Below are positions 42,043 to 42,662 of a stretch of 64,000 bases of DNA, one piece after another. Source of the DNA: a virus; the IMG/VR virus record IMGVR_UViG_3300027887_000463, positions 9,371 through 73,370 of that record. One strand, written 5' to 3'. A program made the position numbers and the translations under genes. Below the pieces are notes generated by a model that had not been told where the DNA came from, searched no databases, and worked only from the letters and a program-made list of their open reading frames with translations. Numbering within the stretch: position 1 is the first letter of the stretch; each line of letters opens with the position of its first letter.

Positions 42043-42662
42043 AACACTCCTATACTATCCGGATGTCCGGAAAATGAACTAATAGTTATTTAATATGTTT
42101 ATAATATTAATAACTTGTTTACAGTGGAATACTCCCACTGCAGTGACGGACCAGCTGTCATGAGCATGCGTCGTCAGTTCCTGATTACGATCGATGATCA
42201 TAGCCACAGTGTGGCCATAACACCTGCGAGCGCTTCAGGGTAACCTCAGGGCTCGGCGACCCGGGGACCAGGTCCCTAGATAGCCTTCATGTTACGTAGT
42301 AGTGCGCAATTGAGACCTTCCAGGTACCGAACTTAAGCAGGAATGGGGAATTCCGCAGGCTCAAGTTGTAGTATACTGTAGGTATAGATGTGCCCAGTCG
42401 GGCTAGCGCGCTATGTCAACATCGCGATGCTTTTAAACCGATGTATCTCGAGGCGCCCGCGGTTCCCGGATCCGAGCTGAGGAGCTCAGCAGCCGGCCGC
42501 CGGAGGCGTGCACGAGTACTTCGAACGATATCCTTCGTGACCTGTTTAATTAATACATTTAATAATATTATATAAACTTAGCCCCGAATTTTATCAAGGT
42601 CCATCACTTTGTACGTACCACGAAACGTCGTACACAGTGAATAAAGAACTATAGAAGTGCAA
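42043..42662. repeat. Non-coding region extraordinarily dense in distinct 6-8 bp palindromes (polylinker-like), GC-elevated core 42130-42560
   Basis: Sites read directly: TCCGGA x2, CACTGCAGTG, CAGCTG, TCATGA, GCATGC, CGATCG/ATCGAT/TGATCA, TGGCCA, AGCGCT, GGTAACC, CCCGGG, TACGTA, TGCGCA, CAATTG, GGTACC, CTTAAG, GAATTC, GTATAC, GCTAGC, GCGCGC, TCGCGA, TTTAAA, CTCGAG, GGCGCC, CCGCGG, GGATCC, GAGCTC, GCCGGC, CGGCCG, GTGCAC, AGTACT, TTCGAA, GATATC, TTAATTAA, AATATT, GTACGTAC. Confidence 0.7.

Follow-up and report, generated by a model that had tools for sequence, protein, structure and literature searches.

Why should a phage genome carry, inside a minus-strand gene module, several hundred base pairs that read like the polylinker of a cloning vector? 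The question is raised by one intergenic segment in a 64-kb stretch of viral DNA, the whole of which is called the window here. An earlier note on this DNA had counted about 38 distinct palindromes in the segment, and had left three origins to choose among: engineering of a cloning site or landing pad, an artefact that stems from assembly or from a vector, or an unusual natural element.

A dense, non-redundant array of palindromes

The density of palindromes was assessed with a sliding window of 430 bp and with shuffled sequences. The sliding-window count of palindromic hexamers peaks at 35, at position 42150, compared with a mean of 6.7 (sd 3.5) over the entire 64 kb, and the ten highest-scoring 430-bp segments all lie at 42090-42180. 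The 416 bp between 42130 and 42545 contain 32 palindromic hexamers, none of which is repeated; 2000 dinucleotide shuffles of this segment gave 7.5 ± 2.7, with a maximum of 18. Thus, the extreme density that had been claimed is upheld, as is the claim that each type of site is present about once (32 of 32 are distinct). Only the figure of 38 was slightly high, in that the longer interval 42100-42620 yields 36 distinct palindromic hexamers, or 39 in total. In a 544-nt core, palindromic 8-mers (13 against 2.5) and 10-mers (four against 0.6) are enriched as well, and so are palindromes interrupted by a single central base (3+N+3; 25 against 8.5, z = 6.2). The two 10-bp palindromes and the PacI-like 8-mer that had been singled out before were located as CACTGCAGTG at 42136, TAGCGCGCTA at 42404 and TTAATTAA at 42546.

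The array region has a GC content of 0.53-0.64 and is bordered by AT-rich flanks of 0.32-0.37, in a genome of about 42% GC. Its elements are short (4-8 bp) and perfectly symmetric, as are the targets of type II restriction-modification systems, and we take many of them to correspond to the specificities of real type II enzymes. Symmetric sites found in this and related arrays include CTGCAG, GGTACC, GGATCC and GCCGGC, together with the interrupted forms GGTNACC, CCTNAGG and GCTNAGC, which are represented in the present array by GGTAACC, CCTCAGG and GCTCAGC, among others. By our reading of the site coordinates, their spacing has no periodicity. The rest of the window contains 969 palindromic hexamers against about 990-1036 expected; i.e., these words are not avoided there, and the premise that such sites are shunned in this DNA does not hold. 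The site types of the array recur elsewhere in the window at the expected frequency, and are therefore not unique cutters.

The array belongs to a virus that is a large phage, and its clade consists of uncultured jumbo phages with a module of MoxR, vWA and retron reverse transcriptase (RT) genes. The phage also encodes a fused RNA polymerase beta/beta' subunit, a baseplate protein, a Lon-like protease, an RNA ligase/kinase and a homologue of IF3; nearby genes specify an SPL-like radical-SAM enzyme, an endonuclease VII-like protein and glycosyltransferases. On the minus strand, the order of the module is a 227-aa open reading frame, the gene of a MoxR-type AAA+ ATPase (bpMoxR; 384 aa, 44226-45380), the gene of a vWA-domain protein (519 aa, 42663-44222), the 620-nt intergenic unit with the array, a 110-aa gene (41710-42042), a canonical retron-type non-coding RNA (ncRNA; 346 nt, 41364-41709) and the RT gene (40479-41363). 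The vWA gene is syntenic with the RT across the clade. The product of the 110-aa gene has no assigned function, and this gene is the next one after the array in the subclade of this phage. The canonical ncRNA, which begins 330 nt downstream of the array unit, has a 17-bp a1/a2 helix, a long msd-like stem and a folding energy far below that of shuffles (MFE z = -9.1). The RT of 294 aa contains an RVT_1 domain and matches, over its full length, the PADLOC retron models RT_III-A, XIII, XII and XI (E about 1e-73 to 1e-55).

The gene annotation thus confirms the context that had been given for the segment, which is flanked on the minus strand by the vWA gene and by the small gene that precedes the retron. 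The distance from the array unit to the RT is about 680 nt, with the 110-aa gene and the complete canonical ncRNA in between. It had also been supposed that the segment separates MoxR-vWA from the retron in transcription. This is not borne out: a scan of the unit for promoters and terminators gave nothing over the shuffle background, no terminator-like site being present, and a covarying helix, described below, joins the two ends of the unit.

Natural origin and selection on the palindromes

At first sight, the locus resembles a multiple cloning site or landing pad made by engineering, or a chimera that arose from a vector or in assembly, since it looks like a polylinker in which every classical 6-bp site is found once. 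However, the 620-nt intergenic sequence recurs with 0-1 mismatches on four contigs (L004, L005, L006 and L008), over the part that each contig covers, and these are independent Logan and JGI assemblies from different samples. The 110-aa protein likewise recurs at 100% identity on several contigs from different samples. Moreover, at least ten diverged relatives have a palindrome-dense stretch near the same RT, with sequences at random similarity to one another. Relatives found by means of the 110-aa and vWA proteins have palindrome-dense but different sequence at the same place (L009, L012, L001, L010, L015, L016, L017, L018 and L019/L024); the flanks of the unit are conserved, and its centre is unalignable except among the closest relatives. 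These homologous versions belong to genomes that differ at synonymous sites. By BLAST, neither the array segment nor the 12 kb around it has a match among GenBank phages, and the array has none among PLSDB plasmids, which speaks against a vector or a phage already known. Together with the recurrence of its sites in the genome, these results lead us to reject the engineered site and the artefact, to which we assign a negligible probability. Of the three origins first proposed, only the last one stands: the array is a natural element, neither engineered nor produced by assembly.

A scan of metagenome DNA gave only three further loci, no relative of the 110-aa gene was found in GTDB genomes, and no Rfam family was detected in the unit at either gathering or permissive thresholds. 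Bacillus phage 0305phi8-36 and Moorella phage MTATph1 have the MoxR-vWA pair, and neither the RT nor the array. The searchable literature on retrons, anti-restriction, decoys and palindrome arrays contains no description of such an element.

That the palindromes are themselves under selection follows from the comparison of variants. Palindrome enrichment is strongest in this phage, L009 and L035 (z = 9-13); eight further variants have z = 4-8. Four-fold-degenerate sites in the vWA and RT genes are near saturation between this phage and L001, L010 and L017, at 34-47% identity, and between most lineages such sites are saturated, at 34-38%. For most pairs, the array cores resemble each other no more than random sequences do (about 48%); each of these cores is still enriched 4-8-fold in palindromes. 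With synonymous sites just as saturated, there is no need to suppose that the core evolves faster or is hypermutated. L009 is close enough for alignment, the core being 73% identical to that of this phage, compared with 58% at four-fold sites. In this pair, 45% of palindromic hexamers are retained in place, against 20% of other hexamers (p = 0.0015). The two arrays have 29 of 33 site types in common (p = 4e-7), only 15 of which are at the aligned position, and some palindromes have been exchanged for other palindromes, such as GAATTC for AGGCCT and CTTAAG for GATATC. The comparisons therefore point to selection that acts on the palindromes as such: some sites stay in place, some are relocated, and others give way to a different palindrome.

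The use of sites is uneven. CTGCAG and GCCGGC occur in nine of ten variants and GGTACC in eight of ten. The array of L035, a distant relative, has sites that are absent from the subclade of this phage (GTCGAC, AGATCT, ACGCGT, CCATGG and TGTACA), as well as two that the subclade has only rarely, AAGCTT and TCTAGA.

In which molecule is this symmetry read? Palindromic hexamers cannot form hairpins, and palindromes with one interrupting base are useless for pairing between nucleic acids. Yet the interrupted class is enriched (z = 2.7-7) in six variants, namely this phage, L009, L035, L018, L017 and L015; the enrichment is absent in L029, L030, L033 and L024. Folding of the core RNA compared with shuffles gave z-scores from 0 to -3.6 across variants, which is not consistently better than the shuffles, and a conserved RNA structure in the core of the array is accordingly not supported. 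The symmetry fits, as far as can be judged from the sequences, double-stranded DNA that is read by dimeric proteins; i.e., sites of type II restriction and modification. That is not to say that the genomic copy is what matters. Since about 970 words of the same class are present elsewhere in the window, the cluster would have no obvious special effect in genomic DNA, and it can be argued on these grounds that the array acts in another physical form.

Retron-like framing and linkage to a reverse transcriptase

The intergenic unit is closed by a long-range helix. Its 5' arm, a1 (UGCACUUCUAUA, 42650-42661), begins 1-2 nt past the vWA stop codon, and its 3' arm, a2 (UAUAGGAGUGUU, 42043-42054), is preceded by UAG and overlaps the Shine-Dalgarno sequence of the 110-aa gene; in this phage, the two arms pair at a distance of 600 nt, and across variants the span is 450-600 nt. 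The helix comprises 12 pairs. In an alignment of seven variants, 97.6% of the cells are paired, against at most 54% in slid controls, with compensatory double changes at three pairs and single-sided changes at four. Directly 3' of a1 is an unpaired G (42649), which is invariant in the seven variants (UAUA-G or UACA-G) and is also found in L018 (..ACUACA-G). This residue is located where retrons have their priming, or branching, G, and it is a putative branch point in the array unit. The canonical ncRNA of the same phage has the same arrangement, with CUAUG-G at a1 and UAG-CAUAGG at a2.

Between the two arms, the unit contains a series of smaller elements. Following the 5' arm is a hairpin at 42615-42633 (HP1; GUACGAC GUUUC GUGGUAC), which has a 7-bp stem and a C-GUUUC-G pentaloop, resembles the hairpins of an msr, and is nested in an outer helix at about 42604-42639. 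A second hairpin (HP2, 42579-42603, loop AUAAAAU), read by eye, is conserved in position and varies in its stem among variants. The array itself (42130-42545) occupies the template (msd) position of the proposed ncRNA. From sequence and folding, an AT-rich hairpin is predicted at its 5' edge (42544-42577) and another at its 3' edge (42085-42114), where a 14-nt inverted repeat is in common with the 5' AT-rich flank. The last of these elements is a conserved UCCGGA-CA-UCCGGA at 42058-42071, just 5' of a2.

HP1 may have a counterpart in the canonical retron RNA. Strict hairpins with a 7-bp stem and a C-GUUUC-G loop occur only twice on this strand of the 64 kb, once in the array unit (42633) and once in the canonical RNA (41626), where the sequence is CUAGAGC-GUUUC-GCUCCAG (41608-41626). 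The HP1 stem is fully compensated in L018. The GUUUC hairpin motif is also present in the vWA-RT RNAs of L018, L020/L028, L025 and L032, and it heads the polylinker unit of L033. When a covariance model was built from the HP1 region, it recovered a single copy in each phage, and the canonical ncRNA was not among its hits. Pairing between the 3' flank of the array and the apical loop of the canonical msd was also considered; it is kept only in the closest relative, and was set aside.

The unit thus has several attributes of a retron: an RT of the retron clade, a co-oriented ncRNA closed by a1 and a2, and a G placed 3' of a1. What the unit does not have is an msd with a long stable stem-loop. 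Because each palindrome is unique, the sites cannot lie in an intramolecular stem, and for want of the msd hairpin we do not file the unit as a canonical retron ncRNA. We propose instead that it may work like a retron template with unprecedented content.

The association with the RT was evaluated across the clade by a vWA-profile scan of IMG/VR, which gave 58 loci. An RT is located downstream in each of the 16 loci with a vWA identity of at least 38%; the other 42, which are more distant, have none there. Dense arrays, defined as at least 17 palindromic hexamers per 300 nt, were counted in seven of these 16 loci with the RT and in 0 of the 42 RT-negative ones. The arrays occupy three positions. 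In the type of this phage, the array has a unit of its own, which is followed downstream by a small gene and the canonical ncRNA. In L035, it is found in the msd position within the sole intergenic RNA between vWA and RT, and consists of 24 distinct sites in 261 nt (z = 12.9); this RNA is directly upstream of the RT, and its closing helix, predicted from one sequence only, has the RT ribosome-binding site as its 3' arm. In L029, L030 and L033, the array is about 2 kb downstream of the RT. The gene content of the gap between vWA and RT is variable among relatives, with a 60-aa open reading frame, genes of 82-141 aa, and the 110-aa gene either present or absent. Relatives of the L020 type have a compact vWA-ncRNA-RT module that is devoid of an array, so that the array appears to have been added to a phage retron module that existed before it.

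The RT-positive clade also differs from its relatives in its use of palindromes at large. The observed-to-expected ratio is 0.94-0.97 in RT-positive phages, compared with 0.83 overall, and 0.69 for GC-rich sites, in RT-negative relatives. This lack of avoidance fits an anti-restriction role for something in the RT-positive clade. RT-positive relatives that have no array in the sampled locus likewise show no avoidance, and the nearby radical-SAM and glycosyltransferase genes could equally explain insensitivity to restriction, through modification of the DNA. If that were so, there would be less need for a restriction sensor.

A possible function and its alternatives

The reading that we favor, tentatively and at somewhat less than an even chance, is that a natural, selected array of symmetric DNA sites occupies the msd position of a retron-like ncRNA and would be copied by the RT into the bait of a sensor. 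According to this proposal, the unit would be transcribed on the minus strand, and pairing of its ends through a1 and a2 would set the conserved G beside the 3' end of the array. The C-GUUUC-G hairpin, common to the canonical retron RNA, would recruit the RT, which would prime from the conserved G and copy the array, beginning at the a2-proximal end, into multicopy DNA. This DNA would turn duplex, either by second-strand synthesis or by hybridising to RNA, and would then display, as bait, one copy each of about 30-45 restriction-modification target sites. If a resident type II enzyme were to cut or methylate the bait, the change would be sensed in the manner of retrons, where the integrity of the msDNA is the guard signal, and a response of the phage would ensue. 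The AT-rich hairpins at both edges of the array may allow snap-back priming. A second strand or an RNA:DNA hybrid is postulated because each site occurs once, so that no double-stranded site can form within a single cDNA strand; the duplex state that recognition needs is the weakest link of the mechanism. Other points that count against the proposal are the gene and the complete canonical ncRNA between the unit and the RT in this phage, the failure of the HP1 covariance model to recover that RNA, and the four variants in which interrupted palindromes are not enriched. Stated more broadly, and with the same reserve, which leaves the idea plausible though not yet probable, the retron RT of this giant-phage clade may make a multicopy DNA catalogue of type II sites, a universal bait that senses or soaks up any restriction or methylation enzyme of the current host.

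Soaking up is a serious rival to sensing, although on balance we consider it unlikely. Here the multicopy DNA, or RNA:DNA hybrid, made by the RT would be a sponge that competitively occupies host type II enzymes and so shields replicating phage genomes. Made of nucleic acid, such a sponge would do the work of the DNA-mimic anti-restriction proteins. The structural evidence and the linkage to the RT apply equally to a sponge; the RT-positive clade lacks the palindrome avoidance that its RT-negative relatives show; and a short sequence that covers many sites would make a good general decoy. On the other hand, type II enzymes undergo turnover, and a decoy that can be cut, and that offers a single copy of each target, would soon be spent. 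Nor could the incoming genome be shielded by a decoy that is produced only once infection has begun. Avoidance is absent also from the RT-positive loci that are devoid of arrays, and sites of common hosts are not duplicated within the array, though duplication would help. We favor the sensor because one copy per site suits a device optimized for breadth, and because the one-site decoy would be consumed so quickly. A more distant alternative, which we judge rather improbable, is that the array acts uncopied, as genomic double-stranded DNA, being either a hotspot of restriction and re-ligation or of recombination for gene cassettes, or a landing zone for proteins. The variable gene content between vWA and RT would be in keeping with cassette exchange, and the palindromes are symmetric at the level of DNA. 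The a1/a2 helix would then merely restore translational coupling across an insertion; indeed, with a1 so close to the vWA stop codon and a2 on a Shine-Dalgarno sequence, it could simply be a translational-coupling device. Against this are the many palindromic hexamers elsewhere in the 64 kb, to which the cluster would add nothing special in cis, and the strong hairpin with a U-run that L035 has between the vWA stop codon and a1. Furthermore, the arrays are confined to RT-positive loci, and they accompany the RT-associated GUUUC hairpin in three genomic arrangements.

Lower still is the probability that we give to a function at the level of RNA. Here the unit would be a long leader, structured or multivalent, for the control of the 110-aa gene and the retron, and the palindromes would serve RNA-RNA self-association between copies or arise as a by-product. 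The unit is co-oriented with the flanking genes, its covarying helix sequesters a ribosome-binding site, and the full intergenic region out-folds shuffles in this phage and in L035. Yet the core does not do so consistently across variants, the palindromes are perfect as DNA and show no tolerance of G-U pairs, the enriched interrupted palindromes would be of no use in RNA pairing, and the identity of the sites turns over while their density is kept. The adjacency of a hypervariable core, set between conserved flanks, to an RT also brings to mind a target or template of RT-driven hypermutation, as in diversity-generating retroelements (DGRs), and MoxR-vWA systems have been reported together with DGRs (PMC7159879). 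In the present case, neither intergenic unit has a second copy in the 64-kb window, where the absence of a TR/VR pair led us to reject this reading. The RT scores as retron-type, the core diverges no faster than synonymous sites, and hypermutation would leave the palindromes unexplained. A DGR-like origin is therefore highly improbable.

Significance and comparison with known systems

The selective pattern is the unusual part of this locus: one of each site is packed into a few hundred bases, this density is kept through a divergence that erases all other similarity, and the pattern is tied to an RT. If the broader reading, of a bait that senses or soaks up enzymes, is true, the array would be the first natural polylinker and would represent a new principle of counter-defence. 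Copying of the array into DNA would make it the first retron template to be legible as a list of enzyme target sites and the first natural nucleic-acid bait for type II systems, and would give a function to the retrons of lytic jumbo phages. The arrays could also record the restriction specificities met by a phage lineage, and the unit might be put to use as a natural retron with a long template, to produce DNA in cells. Should the retron reading fail, a selected array of diverse palindromes would still be there, as a new and unexplained kind of element.

With synthetic polylinkers, the array shares its dense, non-redundant palindromes of 6 bp, some of which extend to 8-10 bp. Unlike them, it is natural, evolving and selected, its sites are not unique in the replicon, and it has no similarity to vectors. 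The comparison with the anti-restriction proteins Ocr and ArdA is a functional one: in both cases, a look-alike of DNA may occupy restriction enzymes, or, for the array, may report them. These proteins, however, mimic generic B-DNA and act mainly on type I systems, whereas the bait would here be a nucleic acid with specific type II sites.

Short palindromes are normally under-represented in phage DNA, where restriction enzymes cut them. The array is concerned with the same class of words, and presumably with the same selective agents, and yet the effect is of opposite sign, i.e., a local enrichment of 4-8-fold, in a clade that has no genome-wide avoidance. As to the supposed conversion of RNA into duplex DNA, a bacterial precedent exists in the defence RTs of the DRT2 type, in which a dedicated ncRNA is copied into cDNA that gives rise to functional double-stranded DNA. 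The RT discussed here belongs to a different clade, and the array has neither the rolling-circle repeats nor the conserved open reading frame of that system.

Retrons of the tripartite type, such as Retron-Sen2 and Eco1, have in common with the array unit an RT of the retron clade, closure by a1 and a2, and an unpaired G after a1; the phage's own canonical retron RNA also has a hairpin like that of the unit. In known retron systems, the msDNA carries target sites of enzymes, and its modification or degradation is the trigger; the msDNA of Retron-Sen2 is reportedly a bait whose methylation or degradation triggers the effector. The array unit is different in that it is encoded by a phage, in the core module of a jumbo-phage clade with MoxR-vWA, and is, in this phage, additional to a canonical ncRNA. 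To our knowledge, every characterised msd forms a long hairpin, which the array does not. Its presumed template is instead an unstructured stretch of 400-500 nt, in which about 30-45 different palindromic sites take the place of one long hairpin.

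The canonical ncRNA and its complementarity to the array flank

Directly 5' of the reverse transcriptase (RT) gene, the minus strand of the window carries a complete ncRNA of the canonical retron type (41364-41709). It is closed by a 17-bp helix between its 5' and 3' arms (a1/a2), in which compensatory changes are found among relatives, and it includes several hairpins and a long stem resembling an msd, the template part of such RNAs. The z-score of its minimum free energy is -9.1. No Rfam family was matched by this ncRNA. The apical loop of the msd stem (41491-41504) is complementary, at 13 of 14 nucleotides, to the 3' flank (42074-42087) of the palindrome-dense array; this 14-nt complementarity is retained in the related locus L009 and absent in L001 and L010.

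The closing helix of the array unit and translation

The array unit has its own closing helix (42043-42054 with 42650-42661), which sequesters the Shine-Dalgarno sequence of the gene for a 110-aa protein, and whose 5' arm begins 1-2 nt past the stop codon of the vWA gene. Thus, translation of vWA could unmask a ribosome-binding site 600 nt downstream.

The vWA gene, array and RT module are separated by a region whose gene content varies among relatives. This region contains a LAGLIDADG-like gene in L010 (4467-5210), a 60-aa ORF immediately after vWA in L018 (6568-6750) and L019 (6542-6724), and, also in L019, a 141-aa ORF in the opposite orientation (7189-7614).

Palindrome usage and other genes

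In the window and loci L017-L080, phages with a retron-type RT downstream of vWA do not avoid palindromic hexamers (observed/expected, 0.94-0.97). The vWA-carrying phages among loci L017-L080 that are RT-negative do avoid them, with an observed/expected ratio of 0.83 overall and of 0.69 for hexamers with at least four G/C.

On its plus strand, the window encodes a single 3241-aa ORF within the structural gene block (17566-27291) and a fused multisubunit-type RNA polymerase beta/beta' of 2031 aa (46266-52361). Its minus strand encodes a Lon-like protease (53792-56017), a denV-like pyrimidine-dimer glycosylase (57223-57711), a polynucleotide kinase-phosphatase/RNA ligase (58055-60223), a full-length IF3 homologue (60223-60690) and a GDP-mannose-dehydratase-like enzyme (61027-62025).

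The MoxR-vWA-RT module

A MoxR ATPase, a vWA protein and a retron-type RT are encoded together in the window (40479-45380, minus strand) and in loci L017-L038. They form a conserved syntenic module in a clade of uncultured jumbo phages, present in all 16 IMG/VR loci with a vWA identity of at least 38%, on contigs of up to 215 kb. MoxR-vWA is not known to be among the described partners of retrons. The cultured relatives 0305phi8-36 and MTATph1 lack the RT and carry MoxR-vWA.
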